64,000 bases of DNA from Candidatus Poribacteria bacterium (GTDB taxonomy: Bacteria; Poribacteria; WGA-4E; WGA-3G). The DNA is taken from NCBI GenBank assembly GCA_026702755.1, contig JAPPBX010000017.1, positions 13,743 through 77,742 on the forward strand. The letters are read 5' to 3'. The notes under the pieces were generated by a model. That model ran no database searches. It had not been told where the DNA came from and saw only the letters and a list, made by a program, of their open reading frames with translations. This document shows, piece after piece, positions 3-55,530 of this stretch; the stretch's first letter is position 1, and every line of letters begins with the position of its first letter. The translations under genes and the position numbers were made by a program.

Positions 3-1802
3 GACAGCCGCTTCACACAGAAATCGGGAATTTATACATTACAGTTGAGCGGAGGCACTCTGTTTGCCGGAACCTCTCTGGGAATCTACCGCTTCAAGAC
101 GGGAACTTGGGAACACCTACAGTTGCCAGTGGACAATACTGTGGTAGTGCGTTCTTTGGCGGTGTCTGAAGACACTATCTATGTCGCCGTAGAGGTAAAT
201 ATAATGGAAGGTGACGGAACGCCAGATGAAAATTACCATAATTTGTGTGACATCAGTAAAGATTCGTGGTGGGTATTCCGATCAACCGATGCAGGCGATT
301 CTTGGACAGATGTAACGCCTACAGATGCCCGAAATTTGATAATGAAAACGTTGCCGTCGATTAAACTGGTCGCATCTGGGAAAACTGTTTTACTGATAGG
401 TGGAGAGGAAGGCGTTGTGGCTCGCTCAACGGACTTTGGAAACACTTGGCGTTCCACAGAATCTTCCGGTATTACATCTATGCAGTTTAGTGTGGGTTCT
501 GCTGTCGCTTTAGACGAAAACACCTTTTATACTGGTGGCATCCCTGGAATCCATCAATCAAAGGATGGCGGTGAAACGTGGCACCGATTCAATACAAGGT
601 TTGAGTGCCGTGTGGATAATTTAATCAGTTTAGAGACGAGTCCAAATTCAAAAGCATCTAAGGTGCTGTACGCGACGGTTGTTGGCGGTGTGGTCAAATC
701 AACAGACGCAGGTAGTTCCTGGACTGCTGTTGACATCGAACGGGCAAGGTATACCCTTACGGTACCAAAGTTCAATGCGAAACTCAAAGATAGGGAAGAC
801 ACGCCGCTAATTGGACAGATTTCCGAAGTCAATGGTGTCCTATATGCAAAAGGGATTCGACGTAATTGTGAGACGGCCTACTATCGTTTAGATCCAGACA
901 AAAATTGCTTATTTCCTGTAGAGGGTTATATTTTTAGAGAGGGAAAGACACCGCCTTCGCGAGATTCAGGAAGGCTCATGTGGACCGTGTTCAAGGGAAT
1001 AACACTCCCCTTTGATTCTTACCGGCTACCGAAACAAGAGGGCCAAATTACCTTTACCAGCTCTACAGATCCGGACGCTGATTCTGAGGATTTATCAACG
1101 CAGATAATACGCGAGAATCCGAGATTTGGCGCAGAATGCTTTTTAAAACTGTTGGATCAAAAACAAGACGAGCATCAACTAACTTACACATTGATGTTGG
1201 AAGGCTTATACGGCAACTTCGCGGTGAGTGGAGAAACGTACTATATGGAGTACAACTATAAACTCTTCCGATGGAAACCGGGTGACACAAGATGGTCGGA
1301 TACCGGTGTAGAGGAAACTTGTGAACTCACGCGTGAAAATATGGGTCGAGGTTTTAAACTTGCTACATCGGGTGAAACAGTATACGTCGGTAAGCGGGAT
1401 GGACATCTCGTCCAATCGCTTGATGGTGGAGATAGTTGGAACGACATTACATCAAACCTACCGCTACCTGTTGCGCACTTCAATCAAATTGTCTTTGCCG
1501 ATTCGACGGTTCATATCGCAACTGACAAAGGCGTTTTCAATTCAATAGATGGTGTTGTGTGGAATGCAATCACCGATAAAGCGGGGAAAGACGTAATCAT
1601 TAAGTCGTTAGCAACAGCAGGGGATACTGTTTATGGCGCGAATGATGACGGCATCTATCACTTAGAAAAGGAAACAGGGACTTGGCAACAAATTGTGCCT
1701 GAAATTCCGGATACTATAACTTCTCTCGTTGTTGATAGAGATGCCTTTTACGTTGGCACCGAACATCGTGGCGTGCTCCGTTTTGAACGTTCTGAGTCGT
1801 AG
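3..1802 (+). CDS. BNR/Asp-box repeat (sortilin/Vps10-like beta-propeller) protein, C-terminal portion; the reading frame is open to the window edge, so the 5' end is missing
   Basis: Repeated SxDxGxTW Asp-box motifs (STDAGDSWTDV, STDFGNTWRS, SKDGGETWHRF, STDAGSSWTAV, SLDGGDSWNDI). It aligns along its whole length with the C-terminal 580 aa of ORF 5352..8447 (e.g. GNFAVSGETYYMEYNYKLFRWKPGD vs GNFAVSDETFYMEYNYKLFRWKPGD). There is no in-frame stop codon between nt 3 and the ATG at 45. Confidence 0.7.
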   Translation, partial: DSRFTQKSGIYTLQLSGGTLFAGTSLGIYRFKTGTWEHLQLPVDNTVVVRSLAVSEDTIYVAVEVNIMEGDGTPDENYHNLCDISKDSWWVFRSTDAGDSWTDVTPTDARNLIMKTLPSIKLVASGKTVLLIGGEEGVVARSTDFGNTWRSTESSGITSMQFSVGSAVALDENTFYTGGIPGIHQSKDGGETWHRFNTRFECRVDNLISLETSPNSKASKVLYATVVGGVVKSTDAGSSWTAVDIERARYTLTVPKFNAKLKDREDTPLIGQISEVNGVLYAKGIRRNCETAYYRLDPDKNCLFPVEGYIFREGKTPPSRDSGRLMWTVFKGITLPFDSYRLPKQEGQITFTSSTDPDADSEDLSTQIIRENPRFGAECFLKLLDQKQDEHQLTYTLMLEGLYGNFAVSGETYYMEYNYKLFRWKPGDTRWSDTGVEETCELTRENMGRGFKLATSGETVYVGKRDGHLVQSLDGGDSWNDITSNLPLPVAHFNQIVFADSTVHIATDKGVFNSIDGVVWNAITDKAGKDVIIKSLATAGDTVYGANDDGIYHLEKETGTWQQIVPEIPDTITSLVVDRDAFYVGTEHRGVLRFERSES

Positions 1803-10987: not shown

Positions 10988-11148
10988 GGAGGAGGGTTAT
11001 CAGTTTTTTAGTTTTCAGTTTTCAGTTAAGATGCGCTTTGTAACAATCTTCCCACCATAGAATATTTTAGGGCGAGGTGAATTGTTACCAGAAACCTCTT
11101 GTGACTGATAACTGTTAACTGACCGCTGACAACTGACAACCATTAAAA

Positions 11149-17611: not shown

Positions 17612-17800
17612 GTCACTAAGCAATTCAAAAGCGGTGTCAAGAACTGTCGGTTTCTTTGCACTATTTCTTAACATGAGCCACTTTTCCTCTGTGTTACACA
17701 CGATTCATCACTACCCTATGACATTCAAGGGTAGTGATGAATCTTATCGGCACTTATTTCAAAATAACCATCCGCTTCATCTGATGGAAAGACGGCGTGG
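17612..17800. repeat. Copy 1 of a ~180-bp conserved 3'-end element containing a 13-bp perfect inverted repeat (ttcatcactaccc ... gggtagtgatgaa)
   Basis: It is near-identical to 21817..21990 (aaggtcac[tg]aagcaattcaaaagcggtgtcaagaact.tcggtttctttgcactatttcttaacatgagcc ... ttcatcactaccc-loop-gggtagtgatgaatcttatcggcactta.ttcaaaataaccatccgctt). It overlaps the last codons of the 1078-aa gene. Confidence 0.6.
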
Positions 17801-20800
17801 ACAATCGGTAGAAATAAACACCACTTGAAACCCGCTCACCCACATCATTTCGACCATCCCAATAGGCAGCACGTGATCGACCTTGATAGAAACCCGCTGG
17901 CTTGAAGCCAAGCGAAAGCGTTCGCACCAATCGCCCTGTCGTATCGTAAATTGATAGCGTCACAGGGGCTGACTCCGAAAGGTGATAAGGTATCCACGTT
18001 TCCGGATTGAACGGGTTGGGATAATTCTGCAACACCAGGCTCTGCTTAGGTACGCCAATCCCCTTAAGTGTAATAGGAAGAACAGCGTTTGCAAGCGCCT
18101 CTGGTGTCACGACGAAACTCAGCTTCTCCGAAGCAATCTCTCCGGTTGCATCCGCAACGGTGACTTCCAGAGTGTCGCCAACCTGGACGACGCTCTGGTA
18201 GGAGAGATCGGCAGTCGCTGCGGCAAAGTAACCGTCTCGCACACGATTCGTCATAATAGCGTTCGTCCGCAGGTTTCGTACAGTGACCAGATAGCCTTCA
18301 AGGTTCTGCACACCTTCTAATTGCCCACTGACAACGAATGCCCAAGTACTACTTGGCGTGTCAATTGATCTTGCAATCGGTGCCGCAGGAACTTGCGGTT
18401 GATTTGTCCACGGTGCCCCGACAAAGGCAACCTGTCGGGCGTGCGGCACGTTGACGATGTATCCCTTTGCCCCTTCAATCGGGAATCCGTTGTCTGGTGC
18501 ATCCGGTGTCCAACCAACGAACTTTTGGTTGACATCATCAAGCTTAATTACCGTCGTTGCGCCAACCATCTCCGCCAGCGACCGAGCGTTCATCGGCGTG
18601 CGAGGCTTCAACGGTGAGGAGATCATGTTCAAGCCTTTGGAGAGAGAGGCGTAGTAGACCTGGCTGAAGTCATCTCCGTCTGTAGGCATTGGGGTGGCAA
18701 TGAAGCCGTGAGTCTGCTCTTCGCCGTCTTCCGAATGAATTTCAAACCAACCGACAATGACACCATCATCGTTAATGGCTTGTGCAACGGTGGTTTCTGC
18801 GCCGGGAATCCCGAATAGGTGAAACTCGCCCTCTGGAGTCCGTAGAAATCCCTGTACTTCAGAGAAATCAAGCGGCGCAGTGTGACCAACAATCCTGCCA
18901 TGATTGTCGATGTCATCGGGGAGCGTATGCCGCTCTGCGTTAATAGACAAAGTTGTGAACTCGCCATCCTCGTAAATTAGCCCATCAATAAACTCTGTTG
19001 GTGTAAATCCTGATTCAGGTAGATTCCAGCCCGCCATCACACCGGCGTTATTGATACCACGAAAAACATTGCCGCCAACACCGCCCGAAGAGGGAACTTG
19101 CCCGAAAGTCCCGTCCGGTTCGCGAAGAAAACTGGTGATGACGATGTCGTTTTCTGTTGGGAAATCGAAATGATACGAAGTGAGCTGACCGAGGTCGTTA
19201 ATGCCCCACCCGAAGTTATCGGCTGCACCCGGATTGACTGTGATAAACATACCGTCCGGTTCTCTCAGGAATCCGTGCTGCACGCCATCCGCGTCTTTAT
19301 ATCGACCCGTGATTTGGCCGGATGCATTGATTCCGAATGCCCGTGTGTCTGTTGCCCCTTCTGGAGCAATCGTCTCGAAGACACCATTTTTGAGCCAGAA
19401 TCCTTTCCGAACAGCGTTTGCATCCGCATAGCTCCCGACGATGTCTCCAGCGTTGTTGATACCGAAAAGCTCTGTCTCCGACGCACCTGCGAACGGTATA
19501 TCGACGACCTCAATATGATACGGTACACCTATTGTCAGGTGTATACCATCTGTGGAGAGGTCGGCGACAGACTCATGGCTGTGGTCAGCGTCATGTGATG
19601 GCGCAGGTCCCAGCGGTGCAACCCAATCCAAGGCTGTCATGTTCACTGGCTGCCCCTCGACAGAAAATGTCCTGCTGACTGATACTGTGTCAAGGTCAAC
19701 CTCAAGAATCTCACCGGTATTGGGATTGCTGACATAGGCGAACCCACTACCGACAGTCAGCGCGGGGCGGAGACCGTCCGCACCACTGAAATCTGCAACC
19801 ACTTGTGTCGATCCGAGCAACGTCCAATCGCTTGGGTTGAACACCTGTAACAGACCGTCAACGGTCAGCACTGCTAACCTATCTCCATGTTTCTTGTCAA
19901 AATCGAAACCTCTGTAGTCTGTTGGGAGTTGCTGAATGTCGTTCGGATCAAGCTCGGTCGAAGTGGGGTGGATACGGACGAGGGCTTTGTAGCCTGGATC
20001 CGGGCGGCTACCGTAATTGCCGATGGCAAACGGCTGGGCGTGATGAGACCTGACGATGCTCGTTCGCAGACCATCAGGATAAGCAATCTTGTGTGCGGAG
20101 AACAGACCGGTTACCGGGTCGTGGGTCATCACAAAAACGCCACCATCCCCCGTGCCATCCTCACGTTTCTCATTACAACCAGCTATGAAATGTTCACCGA
20201 CTATCGTTTCACCGTGCATACCGAGGCAGGATGCTTGGAAATCTTCCTTGTCGTTGAACGTTTGAACAATATTTCCGTGTTCATCAACTACCGCAAAGCC
20301 ACTCGGAAGTGATCCGAACTCACGGTCAGGATCCGGGAGCGAGAAAATTATCTTTCCACCGTGCACCGGTGCTCCAGCACCGTGCTGCGGCGCCGAGGTC
20401 AATATGAGCGTGTCCGGGTTGGGTAAGAACAGGTCTTCCTCGCGCACGGTGACGTTCTTTGAATCTACACCCTCACCAAAGTTGCCATCGAAGTGGATGT
20501 TAACGCGCCCATCGTGTGAAACAAAGTGAATGGGTCTTTGCGAGTTTGCGAGTTCGCCGGTCAGGTTGAACGGCAGCAAGCTCGGTCTGCCTTTCTCCTT
20601 ATCGAAATGATCGCCGTGTGCTTCGAGGTACAGACCGGAGTCGATGAAATTAACGCGATTGGCACCCGCTTGAACAGCGACTGCGATGCGCCCGCTTTCG
20701 GTCGTGTAAACACGTGCAGACCCTTCCACCATGAAGGTTTCTATCACTTCTCCATTGTCAAGTTCAATAAGTTGGAGTAAACCGGTTTCGCCATCTGCGA

Positions 20801-20927
20801 CAAGTAACCGACCCAGCGGCTCAGCATGCTCATCATCATACTCTTGTGCGATGGCTTGCATTGAGAGGATCGAACAAGACATCAAAAACATAAGCAGAGC
20901 CAGGGTGGCTCTCATGCAAGTAACCAT
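17754..20927 (-). CDS. Large secreted surface protein: N-terminal beta-propeller-like region (possibly AztD-like zinc chaperone fold), central HAF-family repeats, and a T9SS-type C-terminal sorting domain
   Basis: The ORF is open from 20990 (TTG). The likely start is the Met right after the conserved leader element (MVTCMRATLALLMFLMSCSILSMQAIA signal peptide). HAF-like repeats (FGINNAGDIVG, AFGINASGQITG, GWGINDLGQLT, FRGINNAGVMAG, AQAINDDGVIVG). C-terminal VLQNYPNPFNPETWIPYHL...VTLSIYDTTGRLVRTL...WDGRNDVGERVSSGVYFYRL is typical of TIGR04183/FlgD-Ig-like CTDs. Confidence 0.7.
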   Translation of the reverse strand: MVTCMRATLALLMFLMSCSILSMQAIAQEYDDEHAEPLGRLLVADGETGLLQLIELDNGEVIETFMVEGSARVYTTESGRIAVAVQAGANRVNFIDSGLYLEAHGDHFDKEKGRPSLLPFNLTGELANSQRPIHFVSHDGRVNIHFDGNFGEGVDSKNVTVREEDLFLPNPDTLILTSAPQHGAGAPVHGGKIIFSLPDPDREFGSLPSGFAVVDEHGNIVQTFNDKEDFQASCLGMHGETIVGEHFIAGCNEKREDGTGDGGVFVMTHDPVTGLFSAHKIAYPDGLRTSIVRSHHAQPFAIGNYGSRPDPGYKALVRIHPTSTELDPNDIQQLPTDYRGFDFDKKHGDRLAVLTVDGLLQVFNPSDWTLLGSTQVVADFSGADGLRPALTVGSGFAYVSNPNTGEILEVDLDTVSVSRTFSVEGQPVNMTALDWVAPLGPAPSHDADHSHESVADLSTDGIHLTIGVPYHIEVVDIPFAGASETELFGINNAGDIVGSYADANAVRKGFWLKNGVFETIAPEGATDTRAFGINASGQITGRYKDADGVQHGFLREPDGMFITVNPGAADNFGWGINDLGQLTSYHFDFPTENDIVITSFLREPDGTFGQVPSSGGVGGNVFRGINNAGVMAGWNLPESGFTPTEFIDGLIYEDGEFTTLSINAERHTLPDDIDNHGRIVGHTAPLDFSEVQGFLRTPEGEFHLFGIPGAETTVAQAINDDGVIVGWFEIHSEDGEEQTHGFIATPMPTDGDDFSQVYYASLSKGLNMISSPLKPRTPMNARSLAEMVGATTVIKLDDVNQKFVGWTPDAPDNGFPIEGAKGYIVNVPHARQVAFVGAPWTNQPQVPAAPIARSIDTPSSTWAFVVSGQLEGVQNLEGYLVTVRNLRTNAIMTNRVRDGYFAAATADLSYQSVVQVGDTLEVTVADATGEIASEKLSFVVTPEALANAVLPITLKGIGVPKQSLVLQNYPNPFNPETWIPYHLSESAPVTLSIYDTTGRLVRTLSLGFKPAGFYQGRSRAAYWDGRNDVGERVSSGVYFYRLSTPSFHQMKRMVILK

Positions 20928-21000
20928 AAATCGTGAAATAGCGACAGAAAAGTCGCGCTGAAAAAAATACGTAAACAATGTATTCTCCAATTTTTTTATC
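20928..21000 (-). promoter_or_regulatory. Conserved 5'-UTR element (copy A) that abuts the start codon and contains the GCGAC-N6-GTCGC stem-loop
   Basis: mRNA sense is aaaaaaattggagaataca.tgtttac.tatttttttc.g.gcgacttttctgtcgctatttc.cgatt.ATG. It is shared almost base-for-base with 26254..26330. Confidence 0.55.
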
Positions 21001-21335
21001 TAATTAGGGCTTACGCAGATCGCTCTTTTGTAGCATAAACTCTCTAACGAAGCGTCATAGACTCAAAATTGCGTAAGTCCTGCTAAATGAAATTACACTT
21101 AACGGCGAACATGCCACGCGAAACATATAAAACGCGTGTTGACATGTAGCCAGTAACGGATGCTTTGCGTAATAGATGTGCTTATGGACATCCCGAAAGC
21201 CGACCACGCATGGGTCCACAATCAGATAGCGTCTACTACAGAGCAAAGCAGCGGTGTACAAAGCGCGGGGCGCGTCATAGGTAACCCCGCGATCTTCGTA
21301 CAATCAAGGATATAAAGGAAAAACAAAATCTGCCT

Positions 21336-21707
21336 TTAAAAGGCATAATTTGCGAGTTCAGTGGAGAATACAGGTGGGGCACGACTTCGGGTGTGGATGA
21401 CCAGTTTTAGAGGGATAGAAGTGTCTTCATAAAGTCGGAGTTCAGTATGAAAAAAGAAAGGTGCGTTGAGAGCAAAAGGTTCAACCTCGAAACTGACGTG
21501 CTGGCTGCAAAAGAAGCAGGCTGCACAGGTATTCTCGCGCTGCGAGTGTTCGCTAGGGCAATGCTGGCAATGCGAATGTTCGCTATGATCGTGTGTCAGT
21601 TCGATGAGACCCAGCAGCGCGACGTAGCAACATAAACCTGCTAAAACACAGATTTTCAAACTACGCCTAAATATTAACTTGTTGGGAAAAGTCGTACCGT
21701 TTCTCAT
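21336..21707 (-). CDS. Small membrane-anchored His/Cys-rich protein (copy A)
   Basis: MRNGTTFPNKLIFRRSLKICVLAGLCCYVALLGLIELTHDHSEHSHCQHCPSEHSQRENTCAACFFCSQHV. There is a paralog at 26873..27220 with many synonymous codon differences over the first ~50 codons (GGT/GGC, CCC/CCA, TGC/TGT, TAC/TAT, CAC/CAT), which argues for a real coding gene under purifying selection. A consensus promoter lies 45-50 nt upstream. Confidence 0.6.
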   Translation of the reverse strand: MRNGTTFPNKLIFRRSLKICVLAGLCCYVALLGLIELTHDHSEHSHCQHCPSEHSQRENTCAACFFCSQHVSFEVEPFALNAPFFFHTELRLYEDTSIPLKLVIHTRSRAPPVFSTELANYAF

Positions 21708-21783
21708 ACACCAGAACCTATGGTTATGATTAAAAAAAATGAATGCGAATAAACTTGACGTAAATTATAGCACGCGATTGTGT

Positions 21784-21812
21784 CAATGTCAAATAGAACT
21801 TAAAAAGTTGAT
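21784..21812 (-). promoter_or_regulatory. Perfect-consensus sigma-70 promoter (TTGACA-17-TATAAT) reading toward the small His/Cys ORF and leader A
   Basis: The minus strand reads tTTGACAttgacacaatcgcgtgcTATAATtta. The -35 hexamer is duplicated in tandem (TTGACATTGACA). Confidence 0.6.
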
Positions 21813-25713: not shown

Positions 25714-26253
25714 TTATTGAACAGTTACCGGTATGAGAAGTGCTCCCGTGAAGTCTGGATGGTCCCCGTGAAGGAGTTGAAGTTTGATGCTCGTTTCGCC
25801 TGCCTTCAATCCCTCGAGTCCAAATCCTAATTCTTCACCATGTTCTTCTTCACCATGTTCTTCTTCACCGTGTTCGTGTTCATCTTCATGTTCCAGATGA
25901 ATCTCAATAATAGCGGAATCGTACTCCGACAAGCCCAAGTTGAAGACTTCCTCATGTCCATGCTCATCCACTGCCTCTACTTCATCGAGATGGACTTCCG
26001 CTTCGTTCGCGTCAATAAATACAACATGGACCTCAATCTCTTCACCAACGCCAACGGTGAGACCGCCTTCATGGGCACCTTGATGTTGATGATAGACCAC
26101 TTCTCCATTAACTTCCAGGTTAAAGCCGTCGGCATCGGCATGCATGGGGGCATCCGTTTCGTGGTCGTGGTCATGGTCATCTTCAACAATAGGGTTGTCA
26201 CTTTCGCCACAACCTCCCATGAGGGGAAGTACGGTGACAAAAGTTAGTAACAT
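25714..26253 (-). CDS. His/Asp/Glu-rich periplasmic lipoprotein (putative low-affinity zinc-binding protein)
   Basis: The likely start is the Met right after the conserved leader element (MLLTFVTVLPLMGGCG, lipobox LMGGC). His-rich tracts (EDDHDHDHETDAPMHADADG, HLEHEDEHEHGEEEHGEEEHGEE, LLHGDHPDF). The ORF as printed continues upstream to 26385 by translating the conserved leader. Confidence 0.65.
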   Translation of the reverse strand: MLLTFVTVLPLMGGCGESDNPIVEDDHDHDHETDAPMHADADGFNLEVNGEVVYHQHQGAHEGGLTVGVGEEIEVHVVFIDANEAEVHLDEVEAVDEHGHEEVFNLGLSEYDSAIIEIHLEHEDEHEHGEEEHGEEEHGEELGFGLEGLKAGETSIKLQLLHGDHPDFTGALLIPVTVQ

Positions 26254-26330
26254 TAATCGAGAAATAGCGACAGAAAAGTCGCACCGAAAAAAATAGGTAA
26301 ACATTTGTATTCTCCAATTTTTTTTAAACT
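26254..26330 (-). promoter_or_regulatory. Conserved 5'-UTR element (copy B) that abuts the start codon and contains the GCGAC-N6-GTCGC stem-loop
   Basis: Plus strand reads cgagaaatagcgacagaaaagtcgcaccgaaaaaaataggtaaacatttgtattctccaattttttt. Compare 20941-21000 gaaatagcgacagaaaagtcgcgctgaaaaaaatacgtaaacaatgtattctccaattttttt. Confidence 0.55.
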
Positions 26331-26872
26331 TTTTTAATCTGATGGTACACAGTATGTGCCCATTGCTTCTAAAATGGAATTGCACTTAACAACGAAAATG
26401 CCACGCGAAAGATATAAAACGCGCGGTGACATGCCGCGAGTATCTCATGCTTTGTTAAAATAATAGATGTACCTATAGACTTCCTAAAAGCGTACCATTC
26501 ATTGATACACAATTAGGTAGCATCTACTATAACCCAAGTTGCTACTAACAAATTTTGGTGTTTGTGCTTGGGTATTTCTGTGTGTTTCAACACCACTTTT
26601 CAAGTATTTCCTCACCCCAGATGAAGTTTAATAAAATATTTGGGTAATTCTATGTTCTCCAGACCCGGTAGGTGCGGTTTCCCAACCGCACCGGGCATCG
26701 GTAAAAATTACCCGATTAAATTCTTAATCTTCATGAGAGGCGATATATCTATAGAATATAGAAGAACACCACAATATGTTGCAAAGCAGAGATGTACAAA
26801 GCGCGGGACGCGTAAATAAGGACCCGCAATCTTTGGACAATAAGAGATATAAAGGAAAAACAAAATCTGCCT

Positions 26873-27220
26873 TTAAATGGCATAATTTGCGAGTTCAGTG
26901 GAAGGTATAGGCGGGGCACGACTCCAAGCGGTCGTGGTAAATCTTAAAGGAAGAAAAACGATTTCATACAGCGGAAGCGTCGTACTTGGAAGAAACGGAG
27001 AGGTGAGTACTACCACCTCAATTTCCTCTCCGACGTGTTGGCTGTTGTAGACACAGGCTGTACAAGTTTCCTCAGAATGCGCGTGTTCACAATGATCGTG
27101 ATCATGCGTGAGTGCTATGACACTCAGCAACGCAACATAACAAAATAAACCTATTAAAATGCCGGTTTTCAAACTACGCCTAAAGACAAGCGTGTTTGGA
27201 AAAGCGATGCCGTTTCTCAT
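26873..27220 (-). CDS. Small membrane-anchored His/Cys-rich protein (copy B)
   Basis: MRNGIAFPNTLVFRRSLKTGILIGLFCYVALLSVIALTHDHDHCEHAHSEETCTACVYNSQHV. See the paralog at 21336..21707. Confidence 0.6.
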   Translation of the reverse strand: MRNGIAFPNTLVFRRSLKTGILIGLFCYVALLSVIALTHDHDHCEHAHSEETCTACVYNSQHVGEEIEVVVLTSPFLPSTTLPLYEIVFLPLRFTTTAWSRAPPIPSTELANYAI

Positions 27221-27273
27221 AACCTATGCCTGTGTTATTATCAAAGCTCAGATTGCCAACAAACTTGCGATAT

Positions 27274-27302
27274 ATTATATCATACGATTATGTCAATGTC
27301 AA
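27274..27302 (-). promoter_or_regulatory. Perfect-consensus sigma-70 promoter (TTGACA-17-TATAAT) for the small His/Cys ORF and leader B
   Basis: The minus strand reads tTTGACAttgacataatcgtatgaTATAATatatcgc. The -10 is embedded in the palindrome GATATA-A-TATATC. Confidence 0.6.
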
Positions 27303-27459
27303 ATAAAAGTGGAAATCATACCAGAACCATTTAGTTTTCTTGTAGGAGGGATCCCCGAATTCCGACTGCTGACACCCTCTCAGAAAAGATAGGCTTGCAC
27401 TTATCGGCGCGATGCTTTATCATATTCACCATGAGATTACCCAAAGGAGACATAATTAG

Positions 27460-28662: not shown

Positions 28663-28850
28663 ATATAGACAAGACTTACGCAGCACAAAATAAGAATAGG
28701 ACTTACGTACACGTGGATATTGAACGGTGGAAGGACGGAAGGAAGGGAAGGATGGAAGACCTGCCTCCACGCTTCCACCCTTCCAATCTGCCGATCCCGC
28801 AAGAAACGAAGGGATTTTGCGTAAGTCCTAATAGCATTGAGGAGTTTTCC

Positions 28851-31416: not shown

Positions 31417-31567
31417 CTTTAGTTATAACTCCTTTAGGACTTACGCAATTTTCTTACGAACAACGGCTACCACACGCCGCTGGCGAGGTTTTAAACCTCG
31501 CCAGCGATGAAGCTGCGCAAGTCCTGTCCTTCTAATTTTTTATAAGACGCGTCGTCCTGTCTGCGTC

Positions 31568-36896: not shown

Positions 36897-36940
36897 GGTA
36901 GGCTTAAAGTCGGAATTCGTAAGATAATTTGTTTTGCTGG

Positions 36941-36996
36941 CGAGGTTTATAACCTCGCCTCTTTTCAAGCGGCGCGCTTTCTTAGCGCGCCCTACC
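36941..36996 (+). terminator. Tandem hairpins after LamG-4: GGCGAGGTTtataAACCTCGCC then a T-run then GGCGCGCtttcttaGCGCGCC
   Basis: gctggcgaggtttataacctcgcctcttttcaagcggcgcgctttcttagcgcgccc. A similar GGCGCGC-tttcag-GCGCGCC hairpin follows LamG-3 at 33975-33999. Confidence 0.5.
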
Positions 36997-38200: not shown

Positions 38201-40483
38201 ATGCCAAAGTCACTCGTCGTTGTTGAATCGCCGGCGAAAGCGAAAACTATCAAAAAGATTTTAGGTAAGGATTACATCGTTGAATCCTCCGTTGGACATA
38301 TCCGGGATCTCCCAAAGAAGGACCTTGGAGTTGACATTGAGAATGCCTTTGCACCGAAGTATGTCTTAATTCGAGGGAAAGGGAAGGTCGTGAAGTCCCT
38401 CCAGAGCGAGGCACGTAAGGTTGATAATATCTATCTTGCTGCGGATCCCGATCGCGAAGGGGAAGCTATTTGTTGGCATCTTGCTGAAGAACTCAAGAAG
38501 GCAAAGAAACCGATCTATCGGATAACCTACAACGAAGTCACCAAAAACGCAATTTTAGAAGCAATCGAAGATCCGGGTGATATTGATATGGCGCTCGTTG
38601 ATGCGCAACAGGCGCGTCGTGTACTGGACAGGCTCGTCGGATACCTGATCTGCCCTCTTTTGTGGCGGAGCGTTAAACCGGGATTAAGTGCAGGCAGAGT
38701 CCAATCCGTCGCAGTGCGTCTTATCTGTGAGCGTGAGGCTGAAATTGAGGCGTTTAAACCCGAAGAATACTGGACACTCACAGCGACATTGACCCCAACT
38801 GAGGTTGAGCATCCCTTCCCAGCAAAGTTACATAAAATCGGGACAAAGAAGGGCGAAATCAATAACTACGGGTTTCGCATAGATGAAGCGCGCGCCAAGG
38901 AACTCGCCGCGGACGCAAAGACACAGACATATCTCGTTGAAAAAGTCCAAAAACGCGAGCGGAAACAGAATCCAGTCCCACCCTTTATCACGAGTACTCT
39001 ACAACAGGAAGCGTCTCGGAAACTCCGTTTTGTTGCTAAAAAAACGATGCTTATCGCCCAACAACTCTATGAAGGCCTGGAGATTCACGGCGAAGGTTCA
39101 ATCGGGTTGATCACCTACATGCGGACCGACTCAACGCGTGTTGCCCAAGAGGCACTTCAAGCGGCACGATCATATATCGAAACGACGTATGGCGGAGAAT
39201 ATTTGCCGAACCGTGCTGTTAACTATCGAAGCAAAAGAGGGGCACAAGATGCACACGAGGCGATCCGCCCTACATTGCCGTTGCGAACACCTACAGAATT
39301 GAAACCCCATCTGAATGATGACCAGTACCGGCTCTATGAACTGATCTGGATGCGGTTCATAGCAAGTCAGATGAAGCCTACTGTTCTTGATGCGACAACA
39401 ATTGACATCAAAGCAGGGACCTATCTCTTCCGAGCCACCGGTTCAATTGTCAAGTTTGATGGGTTCAGGCGTATCTACATGGAGGGTAAAGATGACCCGG
39501 TTGCTAATGCGCCTGAATCGGAAGAAGAGAATCTCAACTTACCTGTTGTCAAAGAGGGTGATCCGCTGGATCTGCGCAAGTTAGAGCCGAAACAGCATTT
39601 TACGCAACCGCCACCGCGCTACAACGAAGCAACACTCGTCAAGATGCTGGAAGCAAAAGAGATCGGACGACCAAGTACCTATGCTTCTATCCTGTCAACG
39701 ATTCAGAAAGAGTATGTCACCAAGGAGCGTGGTAGACTCTTGCCTACAGATGTTGGTAGACTCGTTAATGAACTCCTGATACACGGATTTCCCGCGATCC
39801 TCGACGTTGAATTCACAGCGAAAATGGAAGATCAACTTGATACTATTGCTGATGGAAAAGTTGCGTGGGTACAGACGTTAGCGGAATTTTATCCTGACTT
39901 CCAAACCGCACTCAGTGAAGCCCCTGATAAGATGTATGAAGCCCGAAAAGCGATGGAAGAGCAGTCGGACGAAACGTGTGAAAAATGTGGAGGCAATATG
40001 ATCGTGAAGTGGGGCAGATATGGGCGGTTCCTGGGTTGTGCTAATTATCCAGAGTGTCAGAATATCAAGCGTTTAACCGCCGACGATACCCCCACCGCGG
40101 AACCCGAACTGACCGATACAGTGTGTGATAAGTGTGGTGAACCGATGGTTATTAGGGTGAGCCGCGCCGGCGCGAAATTTTTGTCGTGTAGTGGATACCC
40201 AAAATGCAAAAACGCCAAGCCGGTCCCAATGGGCATCGACTGTCCAGAGGCTGGTTGCGACGGTTACCTCGGTGAACGTCGCAGTCGCCGTGGAAAAATT
40301 TTTTACGGTTGTAGCAACTATCCCAAGTGTGAATTCTCTACATGGGATAAACCTATACCGGAACCTTGCCCAAAATGTAACGCACCCTTTCTTGTTGAAA
40401 AAACCAGAAAACCGAAAGGCAGTGAGACTGTAACCGTGTCACTGAGTTGTCAATCACCGGATTGTGACTATACAAAGGAATAG
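38201..40483 (+). CDS. topA: DNA topoisomerase I
   Basis: Toprim LVVVESPAKAKTI and AADPDREGEAI. Active-site Tyr context LITYMRTDS. Multiple C-terminal C4 zinc ribbons (CEKCGGNM...CANYPEC; CDKCGEPM...CSGYPKC; CPKCNAPF). Confidence 0.9.
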   Translation: MPKSLVVVESPAKAKTIKKILGKDYIVESSVGHIRDLPKKDLGVDIENAFAPKYVLIRGKGKVVKSLQSEARKVDNIYLAADPDREGEAICWHLAEELKKAKKPIYRITYNEVTKNAILEAIEDPGDIDMALVDAQQARRVLDRLVGYLICPLLWRSVKPGLSAGRVQSVAVRLICEREAEIEAFKPEEYWTLTATLTPTEVEHPFPAKLHKIGTKKGEINNYGFRIDEARAKELAADAKTQTYLVEKVQKRERKQNPVPPFITSTLQQEASRKLRFVAKKTMLIAQQLYEGLEIHGEGSIGLITYMRTDSTRVAQEALQAARSYIETTYGGEYLPNRAVNYRSKRGAQDAHEAIRPTLPLRTPTELKPHLNDDQYRLYELIWMRFIASQMKPTVLDATTIDIKAGTYLFRATGSIVKFDGFRRIYMEGKDDPVANAPESEEENLNLPVVKEGDPLDLRKLEPKQHFTQPPPRYNEATLVKMLEAKEIGRPSTYASILSTIQKEYVTKERGRLLPTDVGRLVNELLIHGFPAILDVEFTAKMEDQLDTIADGKVAWVQTLAEFYPDFQTALSEAPDKMYEARKAMEEQSDETCEKCGGNMIVKWGRYGRFLGCANYPECQNIKRLTADDTPTAEPELTDTVCDKCGEPMVIRVSRAGAKFLSCSGYPKCKNAKPVPMGIDCPEAGCDGYLGERRSRRGKIFYGCSNYPKCEFSTWDKPIPEPCPKCNAPFLVEKTRKPKGSETVTVSLSCQSPDCDYTKE

Positions 40484-40565
40484 TTATCGGTTATCAGTTA
40501 CCTTGTTGTGGCACCAAAAGTTTTGTGGACATTACAGCATATCTGAACACCATAGCACATTAACT

Positions 40566-40619
40566 TTAACCATCAACTCGTCTACAGATACTTTTGCTAA
40601 GGCGCAAGTTGATGGTTAA
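40566..40619 (+). ncRNA. Hairpin RNA-like motif, copy 1: variable 8-11-bp stem enclosing the conserved loop TCTACAGATACTTTTGCTAAGGCGC
   Basis: ttaaCCATCAACTCGtctacagatacttttgctaaggcgCAAGTTGATGGttaa. Strand is inferred from the flanking genes. Confidence 0.45.
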
Positions 40620-40650
40620 AACTGAAGACTGATAACCGACAACCCTAAAA

Positions 40651-41298
40651 ATGATACAGTTGCACCAGGTTAGTTTCAGTTATGGCGATCTTAGTGTGCT
40701 CGAGAAGGTGAGCTTTCGCGTGGAACGCGGCGAATTTGTGTTTCTCCTCGGTCCAAGTGGCTCAGGGAAGACAACACTGTTGCGATTGTTATATGCTGAT
40801 TTAGAGCCGATTGGTGGTGATTTGAGTGTCGTTGGGCAACCCCTTGCACGGTTGGACAAAGTCAGTCTACCCTACTTTCGACAGAAGATAGGGATTGTTT
40901 TTCAAGATCTTAAGTTCTTGGCAGATAAAACGGTCCAGGATAATCTGGCACTGCCGCAGCGATTGGTAGGAACACCACCGCAGACAATCAAAGAAAACGT
41001 ACACAAGCTCCTGAATCAGATGGGATTGCTTCACCATCAAAATGCACTTCCAGCAGAAATATCTGGCAACGAGAGGCGACGGCTTGCTATAGCAAGAGCC
41101 GTTATCAACAATCCTCTGTTATTACTTGCGGATGCACCCACAGAGGGCTTAGATTTGCGCCTTTCGCTTGAGGTAATGGCACTTCTTGATGCACTTAATT
41201 TTCAAGGTATGACTATCTTTGTGGCGACGAGTGATCGACAACTCGCTGAGAAATGTAATAAGCGGATTATTGAGCTACGGGATGGTGGTATCCATTGA
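40651..41298 (+). CDS. FtsE-like ABC transporter ATP-binding protein with substituted catalytic residues
   Basis: Walker A LLGPSGSGKTTLL. Q-loop IVFQD. Signature ISGNERRR (canonical LSGGEQQR). Walker B LLLADAPTEGLD (canonical ADEPTGNLD; catalytic Glu replaced by Ala). H-loop VATSD (canonical ATHD). Confidence 0.75.
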   Translation: MIQLHQVSFSYGDLSVLEKVSFRVERGEFVFLLGPSGSGKTTLLRLLYADLEPIGGDLSVVGQPLARLDKVSLPYFRQKIGIVFQDLKFLADKTVQDNLALPQRLVGTPPQTIKENVHKLLNQMGLLHHQNALPAEISGNERRRLAIARAVINNPLLLLADAPTEGLDLRLSLEVMALLDALNFQGMTIFVATSDRQLAEKCNKRIIELRDGGIH

Positions 41299-41352
41299 AT
41301 CGTCATCGGTTATCAGTTAAGGGGTGCCCTGTTTAACCAAAAACCTCTTTTA

Positions 41353-41490
41353 ACCGGCAACTTTGACCAAGAACTCGCCTACAGATACTTTTGCTAAGGC
41401 GCGAGTTCGCATTAAACCAGAGCCTCTCAAACCGGCAACTTTGACCAAGAACTCGTCTACAGATACTTTTGCTAAGATGCAAGTTCTTAG
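41353..41490 (+). ncRNA. Hairpin RNA-like motif, copies 2 and 3 (tandem ~80-bp direct repeat, each with a stem enclosing the CTACAGATACTTTTGCTAAG loop)
   Basis: accggcaactttgaccaaGAACTCGCctacagatacttttgctaaggcGCGAGTTC and accggcaactttgaccaAGAACTcgtctacagatacttttgctaagatgcAAGTTCTTag. The stems differ between copies but stay complementary. Confidence 0.45.
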
Positions 41491-41512
41491 TCAAAACCGA
41501 CAACTATAAAAA

Positions 41513-42370
41513 ATGCGTTACTACTTCAAGAATGCCATATCCCATATAGCCTATGCTGGCAGTACGAGTATGATGAGTTTCATTGGAATCGGTTTCGTTA
41601 CTGTCTTACTTGCCACCTTACTATTAAACCACTCGTTTATATTACAACAATCTGAGTTTAAAAGCCACGCGCCTACCCTTGTTGCGTTTCTAAAAGATAC
41701 TGTCAATGAGTCAAAAGGTCGCGCCTTAGTCAGCCAGATCGAGAAAAGCGGGCAGGTGCTTGCTGTCAATTATGCTTCAAAGGCAGAGAGTCTCGCTCGT
41801 GGTGAAACCCAGTTTCAGGATTTAGGCATCCTCATTAAGGAGGCGTTTGCGGGGACAAGGGGTGTAAACCCGTTTCCGGCATCCCTCAAAATCTATGTAG
41901 ATGAAGAATTGATAACACGTAAAGCGTTAGAACAGATTTCTTTGAATATTAAAGCACACGACGAAATCGAGGACGTGTTATTGACTGGACAGGGACAACT
42001 GAAGGACCGCATACGCGATTCAGAACGCACAACTTTCATCGCTATTGGAGCGGCGGTCATTGCGATCTGGTTTATTATCGGTTCTGTTATTAAAAAAACA
42101 ACGATTGCTCGCGCTGAGGAGATAGCCCTCATGAAACTCCTCGGTATGGTCGGCCGTTATCTCCTCGTTCCTTTTATGGTCCATGGACTTTTCCTCGGCG
42201 GGCTTGGCGCGCTGTGTGGACTCGGCTGCTTCTATGGGATGTTTTATGTATTCAAACCTCAATTAGGGGCGGTCAGTTTCCTAAGCATTTATCAGTCTAT
42301 CTTGATCGTTGTAGCTGGAATGGTAATTGGATTTCTCGTGGGGCTTACCGCACACCGGAAATTTGTGTAG
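41513..42370 (+). CDS. FtsX-like ABC transporter permease
   Basis: 285 aa. N-terminal TM, a periplasmic domain of about 100 aa, then three C-terminal TM helices (FIAIGAAVIAIWFIIGSV; LVPFMVHGLFLGGLGALCG; ILIVVAGMVIGFLVGL). It follows the FtsE-like gene. Confidence 0.7.
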   Translation: MRYYFKNAISHIAYAGSTSMMSFIGIGFVTVLLATLLLNHSFILQQSEFKSHAPTLVAFLKDTVNESKGRALVSQIEKSGQVLAVNYASKAESLARGETQFQDLGILIKEAFAGTRGVNPFPASLKIYVDEELITRKALEQISLNIKAHDEIEDVLLTGQGQLKDRIRDSERTTFIAIGAAVIAIWFIIGSVIKKTTIARAEEIALMKLLGMVGRYLLVPFMVHGLFLGGLGALCGLGCFYGMFYVFKPQLGAVSFLSIYQSILIVVAGMVIGFLVGLTAHRKFV

Positions 42371-44400: not shown

Positions 44401-44499
44401 GCGTGGCTTTCGACTTTCAGTCTTCAGCGGTCAGTAAAGAAAATCCTGTGGTGGTTATGTTGATATACCTGCCCCAAGGCTCTGACTGACAACTGATAG

Positions 44500-55390: not shown

Positions 55391-55530
55391 TTGCGGGATA
55401 TACGCACGCGGATCAGTTATCGGTTTTCAGTTTTCAGTTTTCAGCGACAAGAGGTGTTGTGGCTGCCACAAGAAACCTCTTAACTGATGACTGACCACTG
55501 ATGACTGATAACTATTAAACGAGGTTAGAA

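Follow-up and report, generated by a model that had tools for sequence, protein, structure and literature searches.

Three copies of a sequence that can form a hairpin lie around the ftsE-like and ftsX-like genes of a Candidatus Poribacteria MAG, one between topA and ftsE and two in tandem between ftsE and ftsX, and the locus raises the question of whether these hairpins are structured RNAs that serve the neighboring genes or repeats that have spread as DNA. Poribacteria are uncultivated sponge symbionts, known from metagenomes only. In the following, the window denotes the whole analyzed stretch of 64,000 nt, and handles such as L004 denote individual loci from other Poribacteria genomes. The three hairpins belong to a previously undescribed family of 56-58 bp palindromic repeats of Candidatus Poribacteria, and most probably the family consists of miniature palindromic repeats that behave as non-autonomous selfish DNA and enter heptamer arrays by insertion or conversion. 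A literature search retrieved no published account of the repeat content of Poribacteria or of their palindromic or intergenic repeats.

Hairpins and spacers at the ftsE-ftsX locus

The 20-mer CTACAGATACTTTTGCTAAG occurs at exactly three + strand sites in the window (40582, 41379, and 41457), where the chance expectation was 0 (100 shuffles, with up to 3 mismatches permitted); the three hairpin copies noticed near ftsE/ftsX in a first-pass annotation of this DNA were thereby confirmed. Their arms are complementary, as described there, but the length of 8-11 bp given for the stems needs revision: copies 1 and 3 reach 16 positions, and copy 2 is reduced (Table 1). The stem of copy 1 has 15 pairs and one C·A mismatch and includes a perfect 14-bp run, and that of copy 3 has 14 pairs and two C·A mismatches, one of them within the outer 14-bp run. 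In copy 2, the outer 3' arm is missing, CGAGTTC alone is left, and the remaining pairing is GAACTCGC/GCGAGTTC. The predicted folding energies were -24.7 (z = -5.8), -18.2 (z = -2.0), and -21.2 (z = -4.7) kcal/mol as RNA, and -13.5, -7.3, and -8.6 kcal/mol as DNA, for copies 1, 2, and 3, respectively; with the covariance model, copy 2 scored 63.8 bits versus 81-91 bits for copies 3 and 1. Three compensatory stem differences between copies 1 and 3 can be read off the sequence, and the stem subtype of copy 1 differs from that of copies 2 and 3.

Table 1. Positions of the hairpin copies, heptamer arrays, and promoter-like hexamers in the window
Feature	Position	Strand	Remarks
Left heptamer array, topA-ftsE spacer (GTTATCG/GTTATCA)	40482-40500	+	Directly after topA stop codon; TRF period 7; also in hairpin-free L004
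Copy 1, 58-nt inserted unit	40565-40622	+	5' arm TTTAACCATCAACTCG 40565-40580; loop TCTACAGATACTTTTGCTAAGGCG 40581-40604; 3' arm CAAGTTGATGGTTAAA 40605-40620; then AC; 3' end 30 nt upstream of ftsE ATG (40651)
Sigma-70-like hexamers, copy 1 equivalent (TTAACC...TACTTT)	40566-40594	+	
Right heptamer array, topA-ftsE spacer (AACTGAA GACTGAT AACCGAC AAC)	40621-40645	+	Inverted counterpart of left array
Left heptamer array, ftsE-ftsX spacer (GTCATCG GTTATCA GTTA)	41302-41319	+	Conserved in L075 and L077
78-nt tandem duplication, ~2 units	41331-41486	+	Source of copies 2 and 3; junction inside copy 2 3' arm
Copy 2, truncated	41362-41409	+	5' arm TTTGACCAAGAACTCG 41362-41377; loop CCTACAGATACTTTTGCTAAGGCG 41378-41401
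Sigma-70-like hexamers, copy 2 equivalent	41363-41391	+	
Copy 3	41440-41497	+	5' arm TTTGACCAAGAACTCG 41440-41455; loop TCTACAGATACTTTTGCTAAGATG 41456-41479; 3' arm CAAGTTCTTAGTCAAA 41480-41495; then AC; 3' end 17 nt upstream of ftsX ATG (41513)
Sigma-70-like hexamers, copy 3	41441-41469	+	TTGACC 41441-41446; 17-nt spacer; TACTTT 41464-41469
Similar heptamer arrays	10996-11027 and 55413-55444		

The inverted flanks GTTATCAGTT / AACTGATAACC, which had been taken as the bounds of the elements, are heptamer arrays and not part of the element, because the same arrays bracket other intergenic regions and are present in the L004 spacer, which has no hairpin. Heptamer arrays bracket several further intergenic regions of the window and many intergenic regions in the lineage, and are a general intergenic architecture, separate from the hairpin element. 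In the topA-ftsE spacer, 16 nt of the right array are 94% complementary to 40483-40498, and the hairpin of copy 1 sits at the upstream edge of this array. L004 and L078 have topA-ftsE spacers that align colinearly with that of the window (L004 is nearly identical outside indels) and lack the 58-nt unit; their empty orthologous site reads CACATTAAC followed directly by TGACAA, and in the window the 58-nt unit replaces one heptamer. Copy 1 is, as judged from this alignment, a lineage-specific insertion upstream of ftsE, the direction of the event being polarised by two outgroups only.

The two genes themselves had been described as normally contiguous, but relatives have a gap of 39-162 nt between ftsE and ftsX. 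The spacer is 214 nt in the window, with two copies, versus 136 nt in the relative L075, with one; because the difference is 78 nt, the start-to-start spacing of copies 2 and 3 is also 78 nt, and the two units align, these copies represent a 78-nt tandem duplication of a single copy such as that in L075. The orthologous copy of L075 has 4 mismatches in the 16 stem positions together with a loop change and has decayed. The hairpin family, the heptamer arrays, and other small palindromes account for the 214-nt split of the ftsEX operon and for the sharp differences between the spacers of close relatives.

The palindromic repeat family across Poribacteria

A search of the GTDB species genomes for further copies, as proposed in the first-pass annotation, was productive. 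The exact 20-mer was found at 45 loci, 42 of which belong to Poribacteria MAGs (~20 species, 1-7 copies per genome), and more copies with variant loops were obtained; the other three loci are chance matches without the hairpin, and all bona fide matches are from Poribacteria. Neither the core nor the stem-anchored pattern matched any viral contig, so nothing points to a phage as the source. The consensus hairpin has a 16-bp stem, a 24-nt loop (21-27 nt family-wide), and a terminal AAC, with a total length of ~56-58 bp. Across 41 distinct copies, 94.5% of the stem cells are paired and four stem pairs show double (compensatory) changes (GC30/AU10, AU27/UA13, CG32/GC6, and AU40/CG1), with a covariation score that none of 500 shuffles reached; further stem variants were also found. 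The stems therefore co-vary, as had been supposed from the copies in the window. The loop, supposed to be invariant, is so within this subfamily and not family-wide, since the same stem carries at least five other loop types, which were found by stem-anchored searches where the loop was not used as a search key. Many orthologous copies have perfect stems and identical loops across species. Because different co-varying stem subtypes (ATC/GAT vs AAG/CTT) are present in the tlyA copies at orthologous sites and hybrid copies in L021 and L042 combine the arms of two subtypes, the copies appear to exchange sequence with one another.

That the window holds a local triplication alone, structurally unconstrained and not part of a wider family, has practically no probability. 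Copies 2 and 3 do stem from the local duplication of 78 nt, but the stem subtype of copy 1 is unlike theirs, covariation extends over the 41 copies, and the exact core at 42 Poribacteria loci refutes an unconstrained triplication. Neither an absence of further copies nor random stem mismatches, which had been named beforehand as the outcomes that would speak for it, was observed.

The copies are dispersed: ~35 independent sites adjoin unrelated genes, among them those for GFO/IDH/MocA, Zn-ADH, SecD, NuoN, GNAT, FtsE, and FtsX, and a tRNA cluster. Among co-directional gene pairs, ~17 copies are forward and 10 reverse; relative to the polarity of the heptamers, the orientation is biased 25 to 8. 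Many forward copies end just 8-33 nt upstream of a start codon; however, the idea that the element is always aimed at the downstream start codon did not survive gene calling with a dicodon model.

Copies also lie in-frame inside four ORFs, namely tlyA, recD2, an AsmA-like gene (>1600 aa), and one further ORF, and read LT(N/I/K)NSSTDTFAKARV.GQN every time, in the sole stop-free frame of the + strand. The tlyA product of L039 has a 62-aa insert relative to PDB 3hp7, and poribacterial TlyA orthologues occur in three forms (no insert, the heptamer module alone, and the module with the hairpin). In the DNA alignment of filled (L039 and L080) and empty (L079) tlyA genes, 58 nt replace TGATAAC. Thus, one 7-nt array unit is replaced by a 58-nt unit in both resolved events (topA-ftsE and tlyA), and because the net change is +51 nt, this exchange keeps the reading frame. 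A larger in-gene insert of ~180 nt is a mosaic of array, small palindrome, and hairpin, and the inserts in TlyA and RecD2 measure 17-62 aa. Together with the arrays and the other small palindromes, the family accounts for the length range of the TlyA orthologues, from 284 to 381 aa; it can also serve as a marker when MAGs are compared at the strain level.

Selfish DNA, RNA structure, operator, or promoter

We regard the element as selfish repeat DNA rather than a dedicated regulatory RNA because it inserts between genes and in-frame inside housekeeping genes. The first-pass annotation had left the choice between a functional RNA structure and a hairpin-dependent MITE-like element; the latter is supported, and the former is disfavored by the occurrence in both orientations, the unrelated neighbors, and the copies inside ORFs. 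If the hairpin were transcribed and acted as a structured cis-regulatory RNA or sRNA, with the loop as a protein- or RNA-binding site controlling ftsE/ftsX and other genes, the stable RNA folds of copies 1 and 3 (-21 to -25 kcal/mol, z = -4.7 to -5.8), the co-varying stems with a loop conserved inside the subfamily, and some orientation bias toward the downstream gene would be explained. We nevertheless consider such an RNA very unlikely. The sites form no regulon, coding sequence is entered in-frame, close relatives lack the element in the same spacers or, as in L075, hold a decayed copy, and the loop is highly variable among copies found without it as the search key. The non-Watson-Crick stem pairs comprise 23 A·C and 12 G·T; because A·C mismatches are at least as frequent as G·T, no transcribed strand is favored, and the wobble pairs show no strand asymmetry. 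The suggested comparison with Rfam gave no matching family: there were no gathering-level matches in the 64-kb window, searches of 40400-41600 with E up to 10 gave just chance matches to microRNAs and CRISPR repeats, with scores far under the threshold, and 130 kb of hairpin-bearing Poribacteria loci gave tRNA and SRP RNA only, none overlapping a hairpin. Annotation pipelines should therefore not take these hairpins for riboswitch-like RNAs. An intrinsic terminator was also rejected (no terminator-like sites in 40300-41700, a loop of 24 nt, and a stem followed by AAAAC with no T tract), as was an integron attC site (neither a cassette nor an integrase in the surroundings).

An inverted repeat with conserved arms, usually intergenic and near gene starts, could in principle be a palindromic operator, whose arms would be the half-sites of a dimeric DNA-binding, nucleoid, or site-specific recombination protein. 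We judge this extremely unlikely, as the half-sites would be ~40 bp apart, the arms vary in concert instead of being fixed, which is not predicted for a protein half-site, copies are found in ORFs and tRNA clusters, and the neighboring genes share no class.

Selfish repeat DNA may still carry a function for the host: the perfect stems and identical loops of orthologous copies, together with the orientation bias (25 to 8 and ~17 to 10), allow some host-level function. One candidate, compatible with the selfish-repeat reading, is a portable sigma-70-type promoter whose -35 hexamer, TTGACC, would belong to the 5' arm and whose -10 hexamer, TACTTT, to the loop; with a start site close to the loop's 3' end, transcripts of the downstream gene (ftsE, ftsX, or others) would have an unstructured leader of ~30-50 nt. 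Copies 2 and 3 have TTGACC-17 nt-TACTTT and copy 1 has TTAACC-17 nt-TACTTT, and several diverged loops keep TAnnnT/A 16-17 nt past the -35-like hexamer (TATACA, TATAAA, TAATAT, and TATTTA). Other parts of the window show canonical TTGACA-17-TATAAT promoters, and the relaxed pattern TTGACN-16..18-TANNNT occurs in the Poribacteria loci at 0.82 per kb in sense upstream regions, versus 0.37 antisense and 0.05 in coding sequence, that is, with 16-fold enrichment upstream of genes over coding sequence. The many forward copies 8-33 nt before a start codon also suit a promoter, since a stable mRNA hairpin there would impede initiation, and MITE-borne promoters are known, e.g., in Correia elements (PMC10969869). 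On the other hand, TTGACC matches the consensus at 5/6 positions and TACTTT at 3/6 (including A2 and T6), and because this total of 8/12 is below the threshold of 9/12, the promoter scan did not list the hexamers. Moreover, ~10 of the 27 co-directional sites are reversed, 4-5 copies lie inside ORFs, an acceptable -10 box is absent from loop types A', C, and D, the hexamer of one type-A copy (TGCTTT) is missing the key A, and the common -35 variant TTAACC is without the conserved G. Promoter activity is possible on these sequence grounds, and we regard the portable promoter as a candidate that is less likely than not; if the hexamers are active, the hairpins would also supply regulatory novelty. 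We infer that the hairpins may affect the expression of ftsE and ftsX. Note that a Bacteroidetes-type promoter (TTTG-N19-21-TAnnTTTG) also fits the element, but it had no sense matches in 35 kb upstream of Poribacteria genes; because it was not enriched there, this assignment was dropped for the canonical sigma-70 type.

Proposed mobility and comparison with known repeats

For the spread of the repeats as selfish DNA, we propose that copies would be inserted, or copied by conversion, into the (AACTGAY)n heptamer arrays that bracket many intergenic regions, and that some would land elsewhere, including inside protein-coding genes. Hairpin or cruciform DNA may be the propagated form, by which the arms would probably stay complementary, with gene conversion between copies contributing too, and an inserted copy could later decay. 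In the window, copy 1 would be the lineage-specific insertion upstream of ftsE, and a single insertion into the ftsE-ftsX spacer, followed by the 78-nt tandem duplication, would have yielded copies 2 and 3, with copy 2 truncated. Mobilisation may depend on a trans-acting enzyme that recognises the hairpin, on recombination between heptamer arrays, or on both. AAC, a tentative target-site duplication, stands upstream of 33 of the 41 copies and overlaps or follows the 3' end, and is also the conserved trinucleotide of the heptamer itself. The ~0.55 Mb of Poribacteria loci yielded no transposase, no RAYT, and no complete parent element sharing the arms, nor any solo arms or long arm-bounded elements, the search for unpaired arms giving chance near-matches only; the gene families that recur near the copies are common Poribacteria paralogues (GFO/IDH/MocA, Zn-ADH, and Laminin_G_3), with no transposase among them. 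With ~1-7 exact-core copies per genome, the copy number is low and does not resemble the bursts of classical REPs or MITEs. A rather improbable variant would be a promoter-bearing cassette that spreads through the dispersed heptamer arrays by array-templated 7-nt to 58-nt conversion or by an ssDNA-hairpin-specific enzyme; if this were true, a frame-preserving element could rewire transcription and remodel TlyA and RecD2 in sponge symbionts.

By analogy, the closest counterparts of the selfish repeats proposed here appear to be the Rickettsia palindromic elements, MITE/REP repeats, and the small dispersed repeats of cyanobacteria. Rickettsia palindromic elements are intergenic and also lie in-frame in unrelated housekeeping genes, where a peptide is added and the ORF stays intact (PMC10969869). 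The Poribacteria hairpins resemble them as short palindromic repeats at intergenic sites and in-frame in genes (here tlyA, recD2, and the AsmA-like gene), with no associated transposase known. They differ in size (56-58 bp vs ~100-150 bp), in host (Poribacteria vs Rickettsia of the Alphaproteobacteria only), in having no sequence relationship, in being usually nested in heptamer arrays, and in having fewer copies per genome. Beyond Rickettsia, the family is a second clear case of palindromic DNA that has colonised coding sequence without breaking the frame.

Correia elements contain sigma-70-like promoter hexamers (PMC10969869). With the Correia/NEMIS MITEs of Neisseria, the Poribacteria hairpins share terminal inverted repeats around a short core (16-bp arms, 94.5% complementary), dispersal to non-homologous sites (~35), presence/absence polymorphism (topA-ftsE and tlyA), and a frequent position just upstream of genes in either orientation with sigma-70-like hexamers within. 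However, Correia elements have a TA target-site duplication and the Poribacteria hairpin has no clear one; its arms co-vary in subtypes, it has no evident IHF site, its size is at or below the usual minimum of MITEs, and no parent IS or transposase was identified in the ~0.55 Mb of loci.

REP and BIME sequences are small and imperfectly palindromic and, joined with other motifs, make up mosaic modules between genes; their DNA hairpin is presumed to be recognised by the mobilising enzyme, and as RNA it could stabilise the upstream message. REPs are 20-40 nt long, strictly extragenic, present in hundreds per genome, and linked to RAYT, and a GTAG/CTAC head marks the foot of their stem. The Poribacteria hairpins likewise are small palindromes in mosaic intergenic modules, with hairpin DNA as the presumed recognised form, but they measure 56-58 nt, including a loop of 24 nt, CTAC is in the loop and not at the stem foot, copies occur also inside ORFs, and the exact core is present in ~1-7 copies per genome.

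The small dispersed repeats of cyanobacteria reportedly are mobile sequences of 21-27 nt, nested in other repeats that include heptameric STRR arrays, and are said to be without a known mobilising protein. The work of Elhai et al. 2008 (Genome Res 18:1484) on these repeats is cited and summarised in PMC5861425. In the Poribacteria family, a loop of likewise 21-27 nt varies while the stem around it is conserved, and the unit is nested in heptamer arrays, but the phylum and the sequences are different, and empty sites differ from filled ones by the entire 58-nt hairpin rather than by its loop.

Hairpins of the window and their Poribacteria family

Three matches to the core CTACAGATACTTTTGCTAAG are present in the window, where none would be expected by chance, and allowing 3 mismatches brought no fourth. 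The genes flanking these hairpins are topA, ftsE, ftsX and a PolX-like gene; the FtsX homologues that bear an organism name are all from Candidatus Poribacteria, and the spacers are identical in two metagenome contigs of the window's species. By direct reading, copy 1 (between topA and ftsE) and copy 3 (between ftsE and ftsX) have 3 stem differences, every one compensated on the opposite arm. The first-pass annotation had described three core-carrying hairpins with compensated stem differences, correctly except for the stem lengths, which come to 16 positions in copies 1 and 3. In copy 2, also between ftsE and ftsX, the pairing is reduced to GAACTCGC/GCGAGTTC, and unrelated sequence replaces the outer 3' arm. 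When folded as RNA, copy 1 (-24.7 kcal/mol, z -5.8) and copy 3 (-21.2 kcal/mol, z -4.7) were far better than shuffled sequence, which both also beat when folded as DNA; copy 2 did not show this advantage (z -2.0, RNA).

When one genome for each GTDB species was searched for exact matches to the 20-mer, 45 loci were obtained, of which 42 belong to Poribacteria MAGs (about 20 species, each genome having 1-7 copies). The remaining three, from Niameybacter, Cellulosilyticum and Chitinophagaceae, are without the hairpin and were rejected as chance matches. The family consensus is AAC-TTTGACCAACAACTCG-TCTACAGATACTTTTGCTAAGGCG-CGAGTTGTTGGTCAAA-AC. Among 41 distinct copies, 94.5% of the stem cells are paired and four stem pairs show compensatory types (GC/AU, AU/UA, CG/GC and AU/CG); pairing falls to 27-43% in slid registers, and the covariation score was reached by none of 500 shuffles. 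Because of this pairing, the compensatory changes and the shuffling result, the contrary case, no further copies or random stem mismatches, is disposed of: the hairpin recurs at the 42 Poribacteria loci and its stems co-vary. No published description of it was found in a literature search on Poribacteria repeats.

The 24-nt loop, at first held to be invariant, is the mark of one subfamily and not a universal constraint, since the same stem carries diverged loops. Eight extra copies of this kind were obtained with a covariance model over 454 kb of Poribacteria loci. A stem-anchored gapped pattern, which removes ascertainment on the loop, was run against metagenome contigs; some of its Poribacteria-type matches had type-A loops (those of the exact-core subfamily) carrying 1-4 substitutions, and others had loops 21-24 nt long of several further types, one of which was found in both orientations relative to its flanks.

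Positions of the hairpins and of other features in the window and in loci of Poribacteria relatives (L numbers)
Feature	Sequence	Position	Strand	Remark
Core	Window	40582, 41379, 41457	+	
Copy 1 stem-loop	Window	40565-40620	+	16 stem positions, one C·A mismatch, perfect 14-bp run within
Copy 3 stem-loop	Window	41440-41495	+	16 stem positions, two C·A mismatches
Inverted 7-nt arrays	Window	10996-11027 / 11104-11140		
Inverted 7-nt arrays	Window	40482-40500 / 40621-40645		
Inverted 7-nt arrays	Window	44415-44440 / 44483-44499		
Inverted 7-nt arrays	Window	55413-55444 / 55483-55513		
Second repeat family	Window	31417-31567, 28663-28712, about 21000-21100, 36930-36960		
Second repeat family	L003	9160-9225		topA-ftsE spacer
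Direct repeat, ~0.9-1 kb	Window	20925-21805 and 26251-27315		77-91% identical in blocks
Genes at direct repeat	Window	17754-20990 and 25714-26385	-	
RRXRR protein gene	L005	343-1545	-	400 aa
tRNA cluster	L018	2081-3874		seven tRNA genes and SRP RNA
Hairpin in tRNA cluster	L018	2266-2331	-	between two tRNA genes
Small palindrome beside hairpin	L039	2500-2545		also L028, L042, L019, L031, L033, L010
Modules 3' of tRNA gene	L031	1850-2215		alignment A4, with L033 and L051

Filled and empty sites

The topA-ftsE spacers of L004 (FtsX 88% identical to that of the window) and L078 (84%) are colinear with that of the window, the former being nearly identical once indels are set aside. Both read CACATTAAC|TGACAA where the window carries the 58-nt unit, which stands in place of one heptamer (net gain, 51 nt), and on parsimony copy 1 is an insertion that arose in the lineage of the window. 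A second repeat family fills this spacer in L003 and L076 instead of the window's sequence.

The ftsE-ftsX spacer is 214 nt in the window (two hairpin copies), 136 nt in L075 (FtsX 93%; one orthologous copy), 69 nt in L003 and L076 (96-97%; no hairpin), 39-41 nt in L004 and L078 (no hairpin), and 162 nt in L077 (85%; a heptamer module, no hairpin). Since 214 nt equals 136 + 78, and copy 3 follows copy 2 at an interval of 78 nt, these two copies are assigned to a local tandem duplication, the junction of which truncated copy 2. The L075 copy is judged to be decaying because 4 of its 16 stem positions are mismatched and its loop is altered.

Eight copies, representing 4 or 5 independent genes, lie within long ORFs of high coding score and are always translated LT(N/I/K)NSSTDTFAKARV.GQN, the sole stop-free frame of the + strand. 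The tlyA of L039 encodes S4 and FtsJ domains; residues 5-179 and 242-345 of the product align to 6-176 and 180-275 of the solved homologue 3hp7, and the 62-aa insert left between them is encoded by a heptamer array together with the hairpin and a small palindrome. Among poribacterial TlyA orthologues, lengths run from 284 to 381 aa, and there are three classes (without the insert, with the module without the hairpin, and with both). A second hypervariable in-frame insertion site with IRRNTQA / KTPQA-type repeats (orthologues P0137 and P0185; alignment A7, columns 163-211) contributes to this range. The empty tlyA of L079 reads CAAC|TGATAAC|CAT, and L080 and L039 carry the 58-nt unit instead of TGATAAC, the same geometry as in topA-ftsE. 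In recD2 of L036, the element-containing linker has about 70 additional residues. That the filled tlyA orthologues of L080 and L039 differ in co-varying stem subtype (AAG/CTT and ATC/GAT), and that hybrid arms occur at L021 and L042, points to exchange of sequence between copies.

RNA, promoter or DNA element

Two readings had been offered from the sequence, a functional RNA structure or a MITE-like element that relies on a hairpin. The former was not borne out, and the evidence is against a dedicated RNA function: no Rfam family matched the hairpin in the 64-kb window or in the element-carrying Poribacteria loci, and the non-canonical stem pairs are A·C in 23 cases against G·T in 12, so that neither strand is favoured as the transcribed one. 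Genes were called with a dicodon model, and clustering of the flanks gave about 35 independent sites. Orientation is mixed; between co-directional genes the copies are forward at about 17 sites and reverse at about 10, with 3 sites in divergent pairs, 2 in convergent pairs and 4-5 inside an ORF. The adjoining genes are functionally unrelated (GFO/IDH/MocA oxidoreductases, Zn-ADH, SecD, NuoN, GNAT and a tRNA cluster).

The element also contains TTGACC-17 nt-TACTTT, and promoter activity is a tentative reading of this motif. Canonical TTGACA-17-TATAAT promoters are seen elsewhere in the window, the relaxed pattern is enriched 5' of genes (per kb, 0.82 sense, 0.37 antisense and 0.05 in coding sequence), and several variant loops retain a TAnnnT-like hexamer at the correct spacing; however, the element's own match falls under the threshold of the scan tool, reversed and intragenic copies are common, and the -10 box is absent from some loop types. 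Any such activity was rated as a by-product or later co-option, not the reason for the family's existence.

Most likely, the hairpin is a palindromic, non-autonomous element whose propagation takes place at the DNA level; in this form the MITE-like alternative is favoured by the observed insertion events, in-frame tolerance and covariation. We infer that an enzyme or a recombination route moves it: the hairpin would be a recognised or recombinogenic structure, heptamer arrays would be its preferred sites, and copies may swap sequence by gene conversion. The Poribacteria DNA examined yielded neither a transposase nor a parent element, and no copy turned up in viral collections. In the relative L005, a gene some 8 kb upstream of ftsX encodes a protein with the RRXRR domain (PF14239), known from IscB-like proteins of IS200/IS605-type elements; no link to the hairpin family is evident.

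Like the hairpin element, MITE/REP repeats are palindromic, dispersed and mosaic, and small dispersed repeats (SDR) of cyanobacteria are nested in heptamer arrays. The comparison with SDR draws in part on PMC5861425. In-frame colonisation of genes is common to the hairpin element and the Rickettsia palindromic elements (RPE) (PMC10969869, the source of the RPE and Correia features compared). However, in sequence, host or defining details it departs from RPE, MITE/REP and SDR, and it belongs to none of these families.

Heptamer arrays and accompanying repeats

The inverted flanks noted in the first-pass annotation are present but not hairpin-specific; they consist of heptamer arrays, with (GTTATCA)n following stop codons and (AACTGAY)n preceding start codons. 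Several intergenic regions in the window are bracketed by such arrays, which also occur in relatives without the hairpin. The polarity of the hairpin relative to AACYGA heptamers was the same in 25 cases, opposite in 8 and undetermined in 20. The intergenic modules are mosaics, also carrying AAGAGGT...ACCTCTT blocks and the GAAAGGTTTTTCGCAGAAAAACC palindrome. Bracketing by inverted 7-nt arrays was noticed at many intergenic regions; on the upstream-stop side the arrays read (TTTCAGT or GTTATCA)n, and array pairs often enclose the AAGAGGT...ACCTCTT palindrome. The window's inverted arrays resemble cyanobacterial STRR heptamers, and arrays are also translated inside ORFs (e.g. LSVISSQLSV in TlyA).

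The second repeat family consists of GGACTTACGCA...TGCG(T/C)AAGTCC inverted repeats around a GCTGGCGAGGTTTTAAACCTCGCCAGC hairpin, and had no Rfam match. The small palindrome GAAAGGTTTTTCGCAGAAAAACC(G), with variants such as GATTTTTTCGCAGAAAAAATC, often directly adjoins the hairpin element, which suggests composite BIME-like modules. The direct repeat, in which no long ORF was found, takes in the 5' ends of two minus-strand genes along with the long non-coding stretches upstream of them. Comparison of three related genomes (L031, L033 and L051) shows that whole modules (73 nt and about 150 nt) come and go 3' of a tRNA gene, one of them including a type-B hairpin (a further loop type); all three keep the type-A hairpin before secD with a small number of substitutions, of which two fall in the L051 loop.
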